Assembly: GCA_016297215.1 (NCBI GenBank)
Contig: JAEDGZ010000007.1
Span: forward strand, 1,312 to 65,311
Length of the DNA: 64,000 nucleotides
Source: Paludibacteraceae bacterium
GTDB lineage: Bacteria; Bacteroidota; Bacteroidia; Bacteroidales; Paludibacteraceae
Direction of reading: 5' to 3'
A model generated the notes under the pieces. The model ran no database searches and had not been told where the DNA came from. It saw only the letters and a program-made list of their open reading frames with translations. Every line of letters begins with the position of its first letter. Positions within the stretch are counted from its first letter, which is position 1. Made by a program: the position numbers and the translations under genes. Of this stretch, positions 4,806 through 64,000 are shown in pieces.

Positions 4806-6500
4806 ATGTCTTACGAACAAACCCTCCAATACCTCTACGCCTCACAGCCGGCGTTTCATATAGTGGGCAGTAGCGCCTACAAGCCCGGGCTGGAGAACAC
4901 GCGCCGTCTGATGGCGCACCTCGGCAACCCGCATGAGCGGTTTGCCTCTGTTCATATCGCCGGCACCAACGGCAAAGGCAGCACGTCCCACCTCATCGCC
5001 GCGAGCCTGCAATGTGCGGGATACCGCGTCGGGCTCTACACCAGTCCGCACCTTGTGGACTACCGCGAGCGTATCCGTATCAACGGCGCGATGATTCCCA
5101 AGGAGGAGGTGGTGCGCTTTGTGGAGGATAACCGCGCGTTCCTCGAGGAGGTCAAACCCTCTTTCTTCGAGACCACGATGGCGCTCGCGTTCTGGTATTT
5201 CGCCCAAGAGCAAGTGGACATCGCCGTGGTGGAATGCGGTTTGGGCGGCAGGCTCGACTCCACGAACATCATCACGCCCATCCTGTCGGTCATCACGAAC
5301 ATCGGCTTCGACCACACGGAGTTCTTGGGCGACACGCTGGCGAAGATAGCCTACGAGAAGTCGGGTATCATCAAGCCCGGCGTGCCTTGCGTCATCGGCG
5401 AGACCGACCCCGAGACCATGCCCGTCTTCCTCGCCAAAGCCAAGGAATGCGGTATCTTGGGCGAGGGTTTGGAGACCACCGACTGCCGTATCTGGTTTGC
5501 CGACCAATGCGGCTACCTGCGCCGCAAGCGCCAACGCGACATCCCCGACTGCCAACTCCACGGCATCTACCAAGAGAAGAACATCCAAACCGCCTACGTA
5601 GCCCTTAGCGCATTGCAACAGACCCTCTCTAACTCCCCCTTAAGAGCACCCCAAAAATCAAAGATTTTTCGGGGACCCCGCAAGGGGGAGAACCTAACTG
5701 GGGACGCCCCGACCGTGTCGCGGGCGGTAATAAACACGGAGCGAAGCGGAGTTCTTAACACGAAGTTCCCAACACGAAGTTCCCAACACAAAGTTCTTAA
5801 CACGAAGTCCATTGCCCTCGCTTTCTCCCAAGTCTGCACGCTGACGGGTCTTCGCGGGCGTTGGGAGACGGTGCGCGAGCACCCGCTCACCATCTGCGAC
5901 ACGGGGCACAACGCGCATGGTATCAAGTACGTGGCGGAGCAGTTGGAGCAGATGATGCCGCACTACCGCAATACGCGTATCATCTTCGGCATGGTGGCGG
6001 ATAAGGACATCAGCGAGGTGGTGAAACTCCTCCCCGCCAATGCCATCTACTACTTCACCCAACCCAACAACCACCGCGCCTTCCCCGCCGAGAAACTGAA
6101 GAGGATGTTTGAGGATGAAGGATTAAGGACACAGGATAAAAGACAAAATAGTATATCGGATGAAAGATTAAGGATAAAGGATGAAAGACTAAATAGTTCT
6201 GCAAACGAACTCCCCCGCCCCGCTTGCGGGGAGGGGGCAGGGGGCGGGGCAACCTCCGAGACGCAGGTAACTAATTTATCCCCCTCCCTTTTCGGGGTCC
6301 CCACAAGCAACGCGCAGTGGGGTGGCTTCAGGGAGGGACGGGGTGGGTCTTCTTTCCCCACCATAGACGAAGCCCTCGCCGCCGCCTTCGCGGAAGCCTC
6401 GCCCGACGACCTTATCTTCATCGGCGGCAGCAACTACGTAGTAGGTGCCGCCCTCCAATCTCCCTACCTCACTGCCCCGCTGACCTCACCGAAAGAGTAG
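4806..6500 (+). CDS. folC: Folylpolyglutamate synthase / dihydrofolate synthase, carrying two large repeat-derived inserts
   Basis: 564-aa ORF with the Mur-ligase P-loop HIAGTNGKGSTSH, VVECGLGGRLDSTN and NIGFDHTEFLG, plus C-domain GLRGRWE..DTGHNAHG and a terminal LIFIGGSNYVVG. It is roughly 120-140 aa longer than my expectation for FolC because of the inserts at about 5625-5825 and 6111-6360. Confidence 0.9.
   Translation: MSYEQTLQYLYASQPAFHIVGSSAYKPGLENTRRLMAHLGNPHERFASVHIAGTNGKGSTSHLIAASLQCAGYRVGLYTSPHLVDYRERIRINGAMIPKEEVVRFVEDNRAFLEEVKPSFFETTMALAFWYFAQEQVDIAVVECGLGGRLDSTNIITPILSVITNIGFDHTEFLGDTLAKIAYEKSGIIKPGVPCVIGETDPETMPVFLAKAKECGILGEGLETTDCRIWFADQCGYLRRKRQRDIPDCQLHGIYQEKNIQTAYVALSALQQTLSNSPLRAPQKSKIFRGPRKGENLTGDAPTVSRAVINTERSGVLNTKFPTRSSQHKVLNTKSIALAFSQVCTLTGLRGRWETVREHPLTICDTGHNAHGIKYVAEQLEQMMPHYRNTRIIFGMVADKDISEVVKLLPANAIYYFTQPNNHRAFPAEKLKRMFEDEGLRTQDKRQNSISDERLRIKDERLNSSANELPRPACGEGAGGGATSETQVTNLSPSLFGVPTSNAQWGGFREGRGGSSFPTIDEALAAAFAEASPDDLIFIGGSNYVVGAALQSPYLTAPLTSPKE
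5631..5690 (+). repeat. ~60-nt GC-hairpin element, copy 1 (inside folC)
   Basis: The sequence aactcccccttaagagcaccccaaaaatcaaagatttttcggggaccccgcaagggggag is near-identical to 47941-48003. The outer stem is ctccccct/agggggag and the centre is the palindrome cggggaccccg. Confidence 0.9.
5750..5810 (+). repeat. Alternating heptamer array (agttcyy aacacra) x4, inside folC
   Basis: The array reads agttctt aacacga agttccc aacacga agttccc aacacaa agttctt aacacga agtcc. The 14-nt period is not a multiple of 3, yet the folC frame stays open. Confidence 0.9.
6111..6193 (+). repeat. GGATRAA heptamer-type array inside folC
   Basis: The array reads gaggatgaaggattaaggacacaggataaaagac...ggatgaaagattaaggataaaggatgaaagac. 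The same word family occurs in intergenic leaders at 36892-36925 and 58890-58934. Confidence 0.85.
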
Positions 6501-6777
6501 TCCAAAAAACAACTTAAAAACAGTATGATTATTAAGATTATCTCTCAACACTAAACACTCTACTCTCAACGAGAAATCACCAACGAACTACCTAAGAACT
6601 ACCAAGGAACTACCCACCAACTCCCCACCACCAAAAATATACGATTATTAAGATTTACTAGGGCACGCGGGCATCTCCTCCGCGGTAAAGTGTCTGGGTA
6701 CGCAGGTTCTGTCCGGGTACGCCCCAGTTTATCCCGACAAGTCGGGAACCCGTCGGGGCTAAATAATCCTAAAAACC

Positions 6778-25585: not shown

Positions 25586-26491
25586 TTACACCAATGCCTT
25601 GATGTTCTCTTCGGTGGTGCCGGGGAGGAGGTCGATGGGCGCGAGTTCTATCATCGTGAAGCAACCGCACTGCCCGCGTTGCTGCATGCGCACTGCGGCG
25701 CGGGCACAAGCCACGAGAATCTGACCGGTGAGCGCGGGGTTGTTGATGGTCATGTTGAACTCGAAATTCTGGTTGTGCATATTCGCCGACACGCCGTTGC
25801 GCACGAGGTGCACGCCATGCGCCACGTTGTTGAGCGCCTCCACCGAGGGCACCTCTATCACATGCGTCTCGTCGTGGGCGAAGTAATCATCGCGCAGCAG
25901 GTTGTGCTCCACGGTGTGGAAGTCCGCACCGTCCTCCAACTCTACATACACCATGCGGCGGTGGATACCCGTGCCCAACGGGATGGTCATCGACAGCGCG
26001 TTCTTCACTCCTTTGATACTCTTCGCCGCCACGGTGTGCCCCATGGAGCGCCCGGGACCGAAGTTGGTGTAGGTCAGCCCCTGCGGCGCCATTGCCAGCA
26101 GCAACGCGCGTACCACGGAGTCGCTCCCCGGGTCCCATCCCGCGGCGATGATGCTCACCGACTGCTGTTCGCGAGTCAGCGGCAGCAACTGCGCACGGTA
26201 GTCCAAAATCTGCCCGTGTATATCAAACGAATCGACCGTGCATATTCCTCTCGCAGCCAACTGCTTGGCAAACGCCGGCACCTCGCGCGTGGGCGTACAA
26301 AGCACGCACACATCGGCATCCAACAATTGTTGAACGGAGGATTGCCGGGTGCTGCCTGGAGACAGCACCTCCATGATTATCGAATCGGTATGGTGAAACA
26401 CTCCCGCGAGGGTCATATCTTCGGCAGCAAGCACCGCCTGCTCCACGGCTTTGCCGATATTGCCGTAACCAATAATTGCAACCTTTGTCAT
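25586..26491 (-). CDS. ddh: meso-Diaminopimelate D-dehydrogenase
   Basis: 301 aa with Rossmann start MTKVAIIGYGNIGK. Length and the internal GWDPGSDS-type segment fit the Ddh found in Bacteroidales. Confidence 0.75.
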   Translation of the reverse strand: MTKVAIIGYGNIGKAVEQAVLAAEDMTLAGVFHHTDSIIMEVLSPGSTRQSSVQQLLDADVCVLCTPTREVPAFAKQLAARGICTVDSFDIHGQILDYRAQLLPLTREQQSVSIIAAGWDPGSDSVVRALLLAMAPQGLTYTNFGPGRSMGHTVAAKSIKGVKNALSMTIPLGTGIHRRMVYVELEDGADFHTVEHNLLRDDYFAHDETHVIEVPSVEALNNVAHGVHLVRNGVSANMHNQNFEFNMTINNPALTGQILVACARAAVRMQQRGQCGCFTMIELAPIDLLPGTTEENIKALV

Positions 26492-32435: not shown

Positions 32436-32777
32436 CAATTTTTCTTTCAAATATGCAAAAAATATACAAGTTTTTTTTTTCAACATTTTTGGGGCATTTA
32501 TATAGGACTTGACTCCAAACACTTACGGGGCGACATAACTAAATGATGTTAATTTATCACCTTTGCGGCTGTTGCCGAGCGTACCATCCCGCCCCCTGTC
32601 CTCGATGTCCACCGGACATCGCTTCACCCCTCCTTTCAGGAGAGGCGGGGGAGTTTGGCTGCGCACACCGAACTCTCAACTCTCAAAACTGAACCCTCAA
32701 CTATGGGGAGGGGTAAAAGAGCTTGACACTCTTTTTTGCAGCGGAGGTTTTCTTCATTTTGTTCGATATAGGCAGCT

Positions 32778-32835
32778 AAATCACCTACTAATCACCTACT
32801 AATCTCCTACTAATCACCTACTAATCTCCTACGAT
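32778..32835. repeat. 11-nt tandem array (aatcacctact x5)
   Basis: The units are aatcacctact aatcacctact aatctcctact aatcacctact aatctcctacg. They are related to aatcactaact x5 at 40071-40124. Confidence 0.9.
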
Positions 32836-32929: not shown

Positions 32930-32962
32930 TTGTACACACCGGACACTCAACACTCAACTATA

Positions 32963-33127
32963 GCAGGCGGGGACGCCTGCGCATCCGGACAGGTATCAGC
33001 AGGCAGACAGAATATGGTGCGGCATGGAGACCGCACCTCCTTGGAAGCCCCGACTGGTCGGGACGTACCCGGACATTTCTACCGCGGGCGAGACGCCCGC
33101 GTCCCCAGGGGACGCCTGCGCACCCGG
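32963..33127 (+). repeat. Cluster of GC-rich REP-like hairpins
   Basis: The cluster contains gcaggcggggacgcctgcgcatccggac (32963-32990) and ggtgcggcatggagaccgcacctccttgg (33016-33044). It also contains ccccgactggtcgggac and gcgggcgagacgcccgcgtccccaggggacgcctgcgcacccgg (33084-33127). Confidence 0.9.
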
Positions 33128-40045: not shown

Positions 40046-40124
40046 ATTTTTCTTTGTTATCTGATATAGGAATCACTAACTAATCACTAACTAATCACTA
40101 ACTAATCGCTAACTAATCACTAAC
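40016..40124. repeat. Two adjacent microsatellite arrays at the susD/DUF4960 junction
   Basis: Array ttgacaat ttgacaat ttacaat ttctcat (40016-40043) encodes the first residues MRNCKLSNCQ. Array aatcactaact x5 lies at 40071-40124. Confidence 0.9.
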
Positions 40125-48034: not shown

Positions 48035-48058
48035 TTGAAACTTGAAACTTTTTACAAA

Positions 48059-48085
48059 GCGGGCGAGACGCCCGCGCACCCGGAC
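48059..48085 (+). repeat. REP-like hairpin
   Basis: The sequence is gcgggcgagacgcccgcgcacccggac. Confidence 0.9.
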
Positions 48086-48099
48086 AAAAGACCTTACCA

Positions 48100-49426: not shown

Positions 49427-49477
49427 GGCGCAAACTTCCCCACTTGCTGAGACCTGACACATGAAACTTCTAACACC

Positions 49478-49502
49478 GCAGGCGAGACGCCTGCGTCCCC
49501 AG
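49478..49502 (+). repeat. REP-like hairpin
   Basis: The sequence gcaggcgagacgcctgcgtccccag is identical to 53562-53586 and 63048-63072. Confidence 0.95.
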
Positions 49503-49509
49503 TGATTTC

Positions 49510-52537: not shown

Positions 52538-53995
52538 ATGAGCGCTCATGCTCTGAATGCTCCGAATATTCTGATTACTCCGACAATCTTCAAATTTTCA
52601 AATTGCTTCATGCGTTCCGGTAGCAACAGACAATACACTCGAGAGGTGCGAGCAGACGACAGCACCTATATCCGCGTGGCAGGCACCTGCCTCGAGGAGA
52701 ATCATGCGTTCATCACCCTCGCCCGCCATTTCCGCAGCAAAGGGCTGCCCGTGCCCGAAATCTATGAGGTAAGCAACGATGAGATGGTCTATACTCAAGA
52801 GGACTTGGGCGACACCCTGCTCTTCGACTACATCCGCCACGGGCGCGAGACGGGCTGTTTCTCCGAGGAGGAGAAAAGCATGCTCCGCCGCGTCATTCGC
52901 CTGCTGCCGCATGTACAGACAGAGGGCACCGAGGGACTTGACTGGAGCGTATGTTACCCTGTCCCCGCTTTCGACCGCCAGTCCATCTTCTGGGACTTGA
53001 ACTATTTCAAGTACTGCTACCTGAAAGCCACGCAGCAGGACTTCTCCGAGCCTGCATTAGAGGCGGACTTCAATCGGCTGGCGGACACGTTGCTCGCCTT
53101 CCCATGCACGGGATTCATGTACCGCGATTTCCAGTCTCGCAACGTGATGGTGCGCGACAGAGTGCCCTATCTCATTGATTTCCAAGGCGGAAGACGTGGT
53201 CCCTTGCTCTATGACCTTGTCTCCTTCCTCTGGCAAGCCAAAGCGAACTTCCCCGCCGCGCTCCGCCAAGAACTAATAGCGGAATACGAAGACGAACTGC
53301 ACCACATACCCGAGGCAGGGCGATATATCTCCCTGCCGATTGGGGAGGCACACGTGGGGGTATTCGTCCTCTTCCGCACTTTGCAGGTGCTGGGAGCCTA
53401 CGGCTTCCGCGGCTATTTCGAGCGCAAGCCCCATTTCTTGCAGTCTATCCCCTTTGCCCTGCGCAATGCCGCGGAGTTGCTGCGCGAGCAGCCTGCGCTG
53501 GCGAGTGCGTATCCTGAGATAAGCCGTGTGCTGCTTGCAGTGGGAGAGTCGGTGCTTGACCGCAGGCGAGACGCCTGCGTCCCCAGTGAGGGCAACACGC
53601 CGCTCACCGTTACCGTCTGCTCGTTCTCCTTCAAGAAAGGCATCCCGGAGGATAAGTCGGGCAACGGCGGCGGCTATGTCTTCGACTGCCGCTCCACCCA
53701 CAACCCGGGCAAGTACGAGCAGTACAAACACCTGACGGGCAAAGACCAACCCGTGATAGATTTCTTGGAGCAGGACGGCGAGATACTGACATTCTTGGAA
53801 AGCGTCTATCGCCTCATTGACCACCATGTAGAGCGTTTTCTGGAGCGCGGGTTTTCCCACTTGCAAATCGCTTTCGGATGCACAGGCGGGCAACACCGCT
53901 CCGTCTATTCCGCCGAAGCCGCGGCGCGCCATCTGCGTGAGCGATTTCCGAACATCCATATCGAACTCTTCCATCGCGAGCAACCCCACCTATGA
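52538..53995 (+). CDS. amgK: Anomeric MurNAc/GlcNAc kinase (AmgK-like APH-fold) fused to a RapZ C-terminal domain
   Basis: The N-terminal part has APH/AmgK motifs (GSNRQY, YRDFQSRNVMV, LIDFQGGRRGPLLYDLVSFL). The C-terminal ~130 aa match the RapZ/YvcJ C-domain (FDCRSTHNPG...FGCTGGQHRSVY). The start may be 52610 (MRSGSNRQY). Confidence 0.75.
   Translation: MSAHALNAPNILITPTIFKFSNCFMRSGSNRQYTREVRADDSTYIRVAGTCLEENHAFITLARHFRSKGLPVPEIYEVSNDEMVYTQEDLGDTLLFDYIRHGRETGCFSEEEKSMLRRVIRLLPHVQTEGTEGLDWSVCYPVPAFDRQSIFWDLNYFKYCYLKATQQDFSEPALEADFNRLADTLLAFPCTGFMYRDFQSRNVMVRDRVPYLIDFQGGRRGPLLYDLVSFLWQAKANFPAALRQELIAEYEDELHHIPEAGRYISLPIGEAHVGVFVLFRTLQVLGAYGFRGYFERKPHFLQSIPFALRNAAELLREQPALASAYPEISRVLLAVGESVLDRRRDACVPSEGNTPLTVTVCSFSFKKGIPEDKSGNGGGYVFDCRSTHNPGKYEQYKHLTGKDQPVIDFLEQDGEILTFLESVYRLIDHHVERFLERGFSHLQIAFGCTGGQHRSVYSAEAAARHLRERFPNIHIELFHREQPHL
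53562..53586 (+). repeat. REP-like hairpin inside the amgK-rapZ_C ORF (domain linker)
   Basis: The sequence gcaggcgagacgcctgcgtccccag is translated in frame as RRDACVPS. Confidence 0.95.
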
Positions 53996-62953: not shown

Positions 62954-63047
62954 GGGGAAATTTGACAATTTACTATTTGACAAATAACACCGCCGTATTA
63001 CACTTTTTGCTCACAAAAACAAACTATAATCACGTTTCTAACTTTCC

Positions 63048-63126
63048 GCAGGCGAGACGCCTGCGTCCCCAGTAGTTCGTTATCTGCTTTATCTTATGGT
63101 GCAGCCTGGAGACCGCACCTCCTTGG
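63048..63126 (+). repeat. REP-like hairpin pair
   Basis: The pair is gcaggcgagacgcctgcgtccccag (63048-63072) and ggtgcagcctggagaccgcacctccttgg (63098-63126). The same two modules occur in the 32963-33127 cluster. Confidence 0.9.
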
Positions 63127-63129
63127 TTG

Positions 63130-63555
63130 TTAGAAGACGTCTGCTTCGGGAGCGTCGAGGTTGTCGGTGGCGGGAGACTCTTCGGGGAGGGGCTCATCGT
63201 TGCGCTTGGTCTGGTACTCCTGCGGGCGGTAGAGGATCTGCACGTTCTCGGCAATGACCTCAGTCTTGCGGCGGACTTGCCCGTCCTTCTCCCACGAGCG
63301 GGTTTGGAGTTTGCCCTCGATGTATAGTTTCATGCCCTTGCGGACGTATTTCTCCGCCCACTCGGCGAGGTTTCGCCAAAGGACGATGGCGTGCCAGTCG
63401 GTGCGGTCTGGCACTTGGGTGCCGTTCTGCATGACATAGCCGCGTTCGGTGGTGGCAAGATTGAAGTTAGCGATGGCAACGCCGCGGTCAAGATAGCGTA
63501 CTTCGGGGTCGGAACCTACGTTGCCAATGAGAATGACTTTGTTTACGGATGACAT
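63130..63555 (-). CDS. ssb: Single-stranded DNA-binding protein
   Basis: 141 aa with MSSVNKVILIGNVGSDPEVRY and an OB fold. The acidic C-terminal tip is ..DAPEADVF. Confidence 0.93.
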   Translation of the reverse strand: MSSVNKVILIGNVGSDPEVRYLDRGVAIANFNLATTERGYVMQNGTQVPDRTDWHAIVLWRNLAEWAEKYVRKGMKLYIEGKLQTRSWEKDGQVRRKTEVIAENVQILYRPQEYQTKRNDEPLPEESPATDNLDAPEADVF

Positions 63556-63654: not shown

Positions 63655-63854
63655 CGAAAAGTTTTTGATATATGCAATAGAAGATGTATTTTTTGCGTGG
63701 GAAATCGCCTTTTTCCACAAAAACCGCCGATAATCCCTTCGAGAACATGCAAGAAGATTTTTAATGTAAGTTCGGAAGTAAGGTGCTAATACACGAAAAC
63801 GACTGCGTTTTTTCTCAACAAAAATTGTTTTGGGTGGTTTGTGTCAAACCATCC

Positions 63855-63918
63855 GCAGGCGAGATGTCTGCGTCCCCGGTACTTTGTTTTAGCAGGCGGG
63901 GACGCCTACGCACCCGGG
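63855..63918 (+). repeat. Two REP-like hairpins
   Basis: The two copies are gcaggcgagatgtctgcgtccccgg (63855-63879) and gcaggcggggacgcctacgcacccggg (63892-63918). Confidence 0.9.
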
Positions 63919-64000
63919 CATAGCATTGCTACCTCTCTGCTCTTTGGTGTGTATAATCAAACAGGTCATCTCTCTCCTTGCCGTCTTGCATGTAAAAAAG

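Follow-up and report, generated by a model that had tools for sequence, protein, structure and literature searches.

The 64,000-nucleotide stretch of DNA analyzed here (the window; contig C13, positions 1312 to 65311) carries members of a family of GC-rich hairpins dispersed throughout the genome. We interpret these hairpins as REP elements, i.e. short hairpin-forming units of DNA that are not autonomous and are served by the single REP-associated tyrosine transposase (RAYT, an HUH/Y1 enzyme) of this genome, and assign this reading a probability of roughly 0.78. The genome comprises 1.92 Mb in 45 contigs with approximately 52% GC, and the DNA and RNA sequencing runs that contained window sequence were pig-gut metagenomes. 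The initial annotation had described a REP-like hairpin family, a description supported by the identification of the RAYT, the units that flank it, the rank of their core 16-mer and the phyletic co-distribution of repeats and enzyme.

Anatomy and copies of the hairpin family

A strict regular expression identified 248 sites genome-wide. Unit counts were based on Hamming scans (up to 6 mismatches) with shuffled controls, in which signal was already separated from noise. These scans revealed approximately 176 type A, 122 type B and 100 type C units, compared with approximately zero units of these types in shuffled genomes, and the family total of about 400 (398) corresponds to one unit per 4.8 kb. 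The consensus of type A was (tttt)A-GCAGGCG-RGGA-CGCCTGC-GCACCCGGACA, that of type B was CC-GCRGGCG-AGA-CGCCYGC-GTCCCCAGTG, and that of type C, with a loop of N8, was GGTGCGG-CCTGGAGA-CCGCACC-TCCTT. Type E (approximately 9 copies) combined the stem CCCCGAC..GTCGGGG with the head and tail of type A, and hybrid units were identified in which a type B stem and loop was joined to a type A tail.

Units were 27-31 nt in length, with an information content of zero outside approximately 30 nt, and were built from a GC-rich stem of 7 bp, a loop of purines (AGA or RGGA) and an extension of 8-11 nt. This extension was conserved as GYACCCGGACA or GTCCCCAGTG and was present on one side of the hairpin only. 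The predicted folding energy of the hairpin as single-stranded DNA was -8.5 to -10.6 kcal/mol. In size and copy number the units are those of REPs, being imperfect palindromes of 20-40 nt with more than 100 copies per genome. The GTAG tetranucleotide was absent from the 5' hairpin foot of the units; its position is taken by the one-sided extension, which reads CACTGGGGAC or TGTCCGGGTGC on the other strand, as in the REP convention. This extension presumably resembles the Pseudomonas REP head GTAGGAGC. Alignment of the units revealed no terminal inverted repeats and no conservation beyond approximately 30 nt, which speaks against CRISPR-like and MITE (TIR/TSD) readings.

Within the window, the pattern GGCG-N2-6-CGCCYGC was found 13 times compared with 0.55 expected, a number reached in 0 of 100 shuffles. 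Sequence reading and scanning placed all eight copies listed in the initial annotation on the + strand. The focal 165 nt was denser than described there, and consists of a head-to-tail mosaic of five + strand modules that includes a type E unit and half of a type A unit as well. The mosaic begins with a type A unit carrying one mismatch to the consensus (A-GCAGGCG-GGGA-CGCCTGC-GCATCCGGACA, 32962-32991), followed by a type C module identified by reading and scan (GGTGCGG-CATGGAGA-CCGCACC-TCCTT, 33016-33042), a type E variant with the imperfect stem CCCCGAC-TG-GTCGGGG and the head AG and tail GTACCCGGACA as in type A (33046-33075), and a type B unit of the G-C stem variant (CC-GCGGGCG-AGA-CGCCCGC-GTCCCCAGG, 33082-33110). 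It ends with the 3' half of a type A unit (GGGGACGCCTGCGCACCCGG, 33108-33127) fused to the B tail, a recurrent compound. Elsewhere on the + strand we identified a hybrid with the stem and loop GCGGGCG-AGA-CGCCCGC and the A-type tail GCACCCGGACA (48057-48086), a type B unit of exact consensus between MFS and DPP-IV genes (49476-49504), and a type B unit downstream of ssb (63046-63074). The second module reported at 33016 and 63098 corresponds to type C. The latter copy (63098-63124, +) lies immediately after the ssb stop codon, and an additional, previously unlisted copy with a compensated stem change (GGTGCTG..CAGCACC) was located inside or at the start of a DAPDH-like ORF (26348-26374, +). 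Two suspected degenerate reverse copies were recognizable on the - strand within folC, one as a B-like relic with a remnant of the B tail (5698-5727) and the other as two degenerate A-tail relics (6693-6730).

Other repeats were associated with these units. A small hairpin, CAGTTTG-TTC-CAAACTG, forms a fifth mosaic module with 16 sites in this genome (e.g. C4:61820-61840) and lies directly 5' of several type B units with the A-T stem. The end of module C, CACCTCCTT, is identical to the anti-Shine-Dalgarno end of 16S rRNA (window positions 33016-33042, 63098-63124 and 26348-26374); read on the other strand, the module is AAGGAGGTG followed by the hairpin. In tandem spacers, module C was antisense to genes in a ratio of 18:8, so that mRNAs more often carry the SD-like form. 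Its copy number was 84-100 here versus 264 in the sister species G034. The commonest 16-mers of the genome overall derive from tandem 11-mer and 7-mer arrays (TAACTAATCAC..., GAATTAT...; e.g. window 32775-32832 and 40071-40124), which often adjoin REP units and even occur inside genes; the AmgK gene of G034 contains TTTTCAAA repeats in frame.

The RAYT gene, its flanks and its distribution

The search for a cognate RAYT proposed in the initial annotation gave a positive result, with one gene that is bracketed by type A units and co-distributed with the repeats. A single Y1_Tnp match was present in the genome (C43:8228-8914, - strand), and the RAYT gene itself occupies C43:8228-8827 (-), outside the window. 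The protein scored 36 bits against Pfam Y1_Tnp (cut-off 23). Its best NCBIfam model by a wide margin was REP_Tyr_transpos (72.6 bits, below the curated cut-off of 80), and the NCBIfam IS200 model scored 22 bits. The closest solved relative was E. coli TnpA_REP (4ER8), to which the HUH motif (PNHVHVL) and the tyrosine context (RYIDRNPTKAG) aligned; both were invariant in five relatives, and the RAYT combines HUH with a single catalytic Tyr in a Y-x-x-x-N-P context. The start of its orthologue suggests a predicted product of 199 aa beginning MSFTTPHKPY.

Type A units bracket the RAYT gene, with two in inverted arrangement 3' of it and five in tandem, at a period of 47 nt, 5' of it. The type A core 16-mer GCAGGCGGGGACGCCT was present in 106 copies, was the commonest non-tandem 16-mer of the genome and ranked first in both RAYT flanks; the abundance of the flanking 16-mer is the criterion that Bertels et al. 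applied to RAYTs (PMC5581495). For type A the locus is therefore a REPtron, a single-copy RAYT flanked by copies of its own REP.

Comparison with described systems revealed both likenesses and differences. As in the E. coli REP/BIME system with TnpA_REP (YafM; 4ER8; Ton-Hoang et al. 2012, PMC3333891), a single-copy HUH/Y1 gene is flanked by its own GC-rich imperfect palindromes, of which hundreds are dispersed, with a short conserved tag on one side of the hairpin foot, subtypes with covarying stems, and mosaics with other motifs. The differences from E. coli are that the tag is CTGGGGAC or CCGGGTGC rather than GTAG, that units are mostly singlets or head-to-tail and not REP/iREP pairs as a rule, that about one quarter are intragenic, and that the RAYT is only distantly related to TnpA_REP (E 1e-4) and has an N-terminal extension of approximately 100 aa. 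Pseudomonas REPIN-RAYT systems (Bertels and Rainey 2011, PMC3116915; Bertels 2017, PMC5581495) likewise have one vertically inherited RAYT per genome, co-inheritance of REP type and RAYT, and a flanking 16-mer among the commonest of the genome (106 copies here versus 57-140 for Groups 2 and 3, PMC5581495). The Bacteroidetes TnpA_REP subclasses 2.4 and 2.6 (Quentin et al. 2018, PMC6006769) are similar in having RAYT-like genes flanked by repeated secondary structures and in their NH[V]H and Y-I-x-x-N-P motifs. However, the motifs of the present RAYT (NHVH, YIDRNP) show no exact match to the published signatures, relatives at 40-53% identity come from many different phyla, and the REP is a canonical small hairpin rather than one of the 'atypical' structures of subclass 2.6.

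We searched 61 genomes, representing 37 species of the genus (including the present one, G000) and 24 other families of the order. Types A, B and C and a RAYT orthologue were found together only in G000 and G034 (2/37 species of the genus and 0/24 other families), so REP types and RAYT co-occur phylogenetically. G034 contained 123 type A, 82 type B and 264 type C copies, and two other congeners contained one B copy each. The RAYT orthologue, also flanked by A units, shared 88% amino-acid identity and was present in G034 only. Conserved coding DNA differed by approximately 5-7% between the two species and the RAYT by 6.5%, a match which indicates that the system was inherited from their common ancestor. 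Recent transfer of the RAYT between G000 and G034 was rejected, as its 93.5% DNA identity is that of the neighboring housekeeping DNA.

Individual units differed between the two species. The focal cluster was absent from the orthologous G034 spacer, where only the gene-proximal half unit was retained, and the B unit that occupies the same codon position of the amgK linker in both species runs forward in G000 and in the reverse direction in G034 (L008:2520-2550 versus L009:2520-2560). Repeat composition thus turns over between species that are approximately 93% identical in DNA. The G034 amgK linker also retains a degenerate forward tail, and the unit appears as if the hairpin had flipped in place or been turned into a longer perfect palindrome, perhaps by template switching. 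Two further type A units of G034 (L003:1492-1545 and L104:1378-1430) are split between GGGGACGC and CTGCGCACCCGG by inserts of the same kind, 23 nt in length (ccgataaatcgg.atgcaagc), a pattern suggestive of a small element nested in the unit or of a favored cutting position within the hairpin.

Only type A was found in the RAYT flanks of both G000 and G034; types B and C flank no RAYT in this genome, and type C lacks both the AGA loop and the tail. Types B and C might accordingly be relics or clients of another enzyme, either a second RAYT that has since been lost or a transposase of unrelated type, with the present RAYT serving only type A. We regard this as unlikely, although a B-like REP does flank a different RAYT elsewhere and the loop of type C differs and is joined to no clade-type tail. 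The genome, which is 96% complete, contains one Y1 gene only, A/B hybrids exist, and A, B and C share an identical phyletic pattern and form composites with fixed spacings. A second Y1/RAYT-like domain in G034 (38% identity; L022:782-4678, - strand, contig C112 of G034) was rejected as the enzyme of types B and C; it is embedded in a 1298-aa ORF and has no units beside it. In G048 (L005) a RAYT-like domain similarly continues into a long ORF, one that resembles a restriction-enzyme subunit by eye. We favor the reading that the RAYT identified here mobilizes the units and that type B, and with less confidence type C, may use it too.

RAYTs outside the two species bear on this point. In the congener G017, the RAYT with 49% identity is flanked by the B-like REP GCGGGCG-AGC-CGCCCGC-GTCCCAGG. 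More than 580 RAYT relatives at 40-53% identity were identified in many phyla, and RAYTs of this clade in Labrys okinawensis (an alphaproteobacterium), a Victivallales MAG and a Binatia MAG are flanked by GCGGNCN-AGA-NGNCCGC-GCNCCCRGG, of which dispersed copies numbered 164, 69 and 46, respectively. Across great distances the stem thus varies around a constant AGA loop and GYNCCCRG extension. In Labrys, one stem type occurs with both an A-like tail (GCACCCGG) and a B-like tail (GCTCCCAGG), which argues that one enzyme clade tolerates both tails and against a separate enzyme for type B. The 164 REPs of the Labrys chromosome (G063) are mostly inverted doublets approximately 60 nt apart, and their loop-closing pair covaries (GCGGACG..CGTCCGC versus GCGGACA..TGTCCGC).

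Stem pairing and relation to genes and transcripts

Compensatory A..T to G..C changes on both arms had been noted in the window copies, and such changes were confirmed genome-wide, with 49 double versus 10 single-arm states at the variable pair. In this genome, however, double changes were nearly confined to this one stem pair (44 B units and 5 A units), and the G-C variant was linked to a different 5' flank, which marks it as a subfamily and implies few events. Among 61 distinct B rows, double-change cells numbered 22 compared with 10.3 ± 2.6 in shuffles, above every shuffle; this did not hold for the number of covarying pairs in the same rows (2). Covariation was strong between subfamilies and phyla. 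In a comparison of subfamily consensus sequences from four phyla, in rows hand-chosen by the analyst, 4 of 7 stem pairs changed on both sides and none on one side only, and 100% of cells were paired (0/500 shuffles). Taken together, these sequence comparisons provide good support for a requirement for a paired stem. Palindrome-templated mutation, i.e. template switching at quasi-palindromes, can also produce 'compensatory' changes without selection and could have contributed here.

The degenerate type B copy at 63853-63881 (+) had been described as keeping wobble pairs on the + strand only. Its two C-to-T changes in the 3' arm do give G.T pairs on that strand, but the idea of strand-specific G.U wobble was rejected. 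The neighboring type A copy (63891-63920, +) contains one C.A mismatch in its stem, a wobble only on the other strand, and single-arm G.T pairs numbered 26 compared with 34 A.C pairs genome-wide. As G.T was not in excess of A.C, there is no sign of selection on RNA from one strand.

We also analyzed the location of units with respect to genes. By our own rough gene calls, intergenic DNA accounts for approximately 12% of the genome yet holds most units. The density of type A per kb of spacer was 0.58 in divergent, 0.57 in tandem and 0.62 in convergent spacers. In tandem spacers the tail end of the unit faces the nearer gene; for antisense units the median distance to the stop of the upstream gene was 22-37 nt, and sense units were closer to the start of the downstream gene. 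The same gene calls placed 92 of 398 units (approximately 23%), in both orientations, within ORFs with coding signal on both sides. The units are free of stop codons in all six frames, and the preferred reading frames of intragenic units were TGDAGVSPA, AGETPASPV and RRRDACVPS. One example from the window is the type B unit at 53560-53588 (+), whose in-frame translation (..DRRRDACVPSEG..) forms part of an AmgK-like protein, in the variable linker that joins the kinase domain to RapZ_C. Rickettsia palindromic elements and intragenic REPs (Di Nocera 2013, PMC3733652) are comparable short palindromic repeats read in frame, typically in variable loops or linkers. Rickettsia palindromic elements differ in their length, approximately 100-150 bp, and in belonging to the CGTC-tagged group, which has no known transposase, whereas a cognate RAYT is present here.

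A different explanation is that the hairpins act mainly at the RNA level, as terminators or as stabilizers of mRNA 3' ends kept by selection on transcripts, with an incidental association to the RAYT. REPs of E. coli stabilize upstream mRNA. Many units are near stop codons, including the antisense units of tandem spacers at the distances given above. Units were present at very high summed depth in pig-gut metatranscriptome assemblies, and those downstream of ssb (63130-63555, - strand) occur in metatranscriptome contigs that continue from the gene and read through both the C and the B unit, in unitigs that cannot map 3' ends. Nevertheless, we consider this explanation improbable. No T run was found 3' of the hairpin on either strand, and thus no U tract; density was equal across spacer types, including divergent spacers; and the many intragenic units occur in both orientations, with an orientation independent of gene strand. 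The units therefore do not have the make-up of intrinsic terminators. G.T wobbles were not above A.C, and RNA-level selection would leave the restriction to two RAYT-bearing species unexplained. A primary terminator role is thus unlikely, and a secondary effect on mRNA 3' ends may exist.

In the mechanism that we favor instead, modeled on E. coli TnpA_REP and IS608 (PMC3333891, PMC6006769, PMC5027513), the RAYT would recognize the folded hairpin and its extension on single-stranded DNA, cut the unit and rejoin it elsewhere. Cutting and rejoining would spread the copies and reshuffle them into head-to-tail mosaics of A, B, E and the co-travelling C, and a stem that must pair as DNA would account for the compensated changes. 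We examined Logan contigs of pig-gut DNA for a within-species pair of empty and filled sites; no clean pair was found among these contigs, in which unitigs break at repeats and joints were mostly other copies. An exact-protein look-up of the neighboring PfkB gave one short contig that ends before the focal spacer.

Orientation of units and GC skew

Adjacent units (up to 150 nt apart) were head-to-tail in 89 of 97 cases and inverted in 8, and the fixed spacings C-3 nt-A, C-2 nt-B and A-5/6 nt-B were recurrent. The replicating unit of Pseudomonas REPINs is an inverted doublet; with 8/97 adjacent pairs inverted, two inverted REPs are not the unit here. The initial annotation had noted a single orientation, which held for the window, where all 7 independent clusters were +, and did not extend to the genome as a whole. 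Both orientations occurred genome-wide in a regionally coherent manner, with successive clusters co-oriented 187:65 (P = 7e-15) and, when more than 10 kb apart, 26:11. Random orientation together with no excess of compensatory changes had been named as the result that would speak against the finding; we observed neither, given the ratio of 187:65 and the 49 versus 10 stem states. Among the units listed for G034, successive clusters were co-oriented 42:13 overall and 6:6 at distances of at least 10 kb.

To relate orientation to skew, we calculated skew exclusively from coding sequence and masked each unit together with 300 nt on either side. Orientation was associated with GC skew at ±5 kb (OR 4.3), each of modules A, B and C being significant alone, and with GC3 skew (OR 4.0, P = 1e-8). 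There was no significant association with GC12 skew, which tracks gene strand (OR 1.5), and the odds ratio for gene strand itself was 0.95. Block permutation that preserved autocorrelation gave P ≤ 2e-4 for the link between orientation and skew. The strand that reads hairpin then tail was enriched on the G3-rich strand. The link held at ±5-10 kb and faded by ±40 kb. In the window itself all units were + though skew there was mostly negative. GC skew, including GC3, was patchy at a scale of 10-40 kb and often opposite to gene direction (contigs C28, C43 and C10), which suggests many inversions or a mosaic assembly in the MAG.

These data tentatively point to unit direction that follows GC3 skew as the genomic footprint of strand-specific, RAYT-driven REP insertion at the replication fork, a reading that we hold at less than even odds. 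Single-stranded DNA asymmetrically exposed at replication forks would lead to strand-specific insertions, and these in turn to neighbors that share a direction and to a direction that follows GC3 skew. The model invoked is that of IS608 and ISDra2 (IS200/IS605; Ton-Hoang 2010; Lavatine 2016, PMC5027513), in which a Y1 HUH enzyme likewise acts on single-stranded DNA hairpins, orientation follows the direction of replication, and excision and insertion use the lagging-strand template (PMC5027513). Unlike the 30-nt non-autonomous units described here, those elements are autonomous and encode their own transposase. For E. coli TnpA_REP, a link to replication was proposed only (Ton-Hoang et al. 2012, PMC3333891), and our literature searches identified no reports of REP orientation bias relative to replication. 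In a MAG of 45 contigs with a patchy skew landscape, replication direction is inferred only, and a replication origin of the polarity is accordingly presumed. Should the enzyme bind the tag-5' strand, as the E. coli analogy would suggest, the polarity appears to run counter to what IS608 in its simple form would predict. The tag-5' strand was enriched on the C3-rich side and is not the expected lagging-strand template. We extended the polarity check to chromosomes of distant relatives; Labrys REPs are inverted doublets and copies in the Binatia MAG lie mostly beside the RAYT, so that no polarity was readable.

Co-orientation and the skew link might instead arise from local processes, namely copy-and-paste or gene conversion between neighbors, growth of tandem mosaics, and inversion of segments. 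Coherence was strongest within 10 kb and was lost at 10 kb or more in G034 (6:6), the skew correlation decays with window size, and tandem arrays of fixed period occur, such as the 47-nt array beside the RAYT. Against this, clusters more than 10 kb apart were still co-oriented in G000 (26:11), and the GC3 link was obtained from coding DNA with the units masked, a link that local copying alone would not yield and that all three modules showed separately. On balance we judge a purely local origin somewhat unlikely.

REP/RAYT systems, Bacteroidetes RAYT subclasses and intragenic REPs have been published previously (PMC2817692, PMC6006769, PMC3733652). The present system is notable for units arranged as head-to-tail singlets, for a polarity tied to GC3 skew and for a loop and tail conserved across phyla. 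REP/RAYT systems have been studied almost wholly in Proteobacteria, where symmetric inverted pairs hide any strand preference; the asymmetric head-to-tail singlets of the present system make the history of insertion direction readable. Expansion of the system was confined to two sister species within a genus of gut Bacteroidales. That RAYTs of the clade are accompanied by this hairpin, loop and tail in four phyla suggests which features the enzyme recognizes. For annotation, the family accounts for the abundance of GC-rich hairpins in these MAGs and for their unusual peptide inserts of low complexity. It also offers a tractable natural system in which to ask whether REP spread is coupled to replication and how 30-nt stop-free hairpins, approximately 90 of which are read in frame, remodel proteins. 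If the polarity holds true in a closed genome, it would represent the footprint of the fork strand-specificity proposed in 2012 for E. coli TnpA_REP (PMC3333891).
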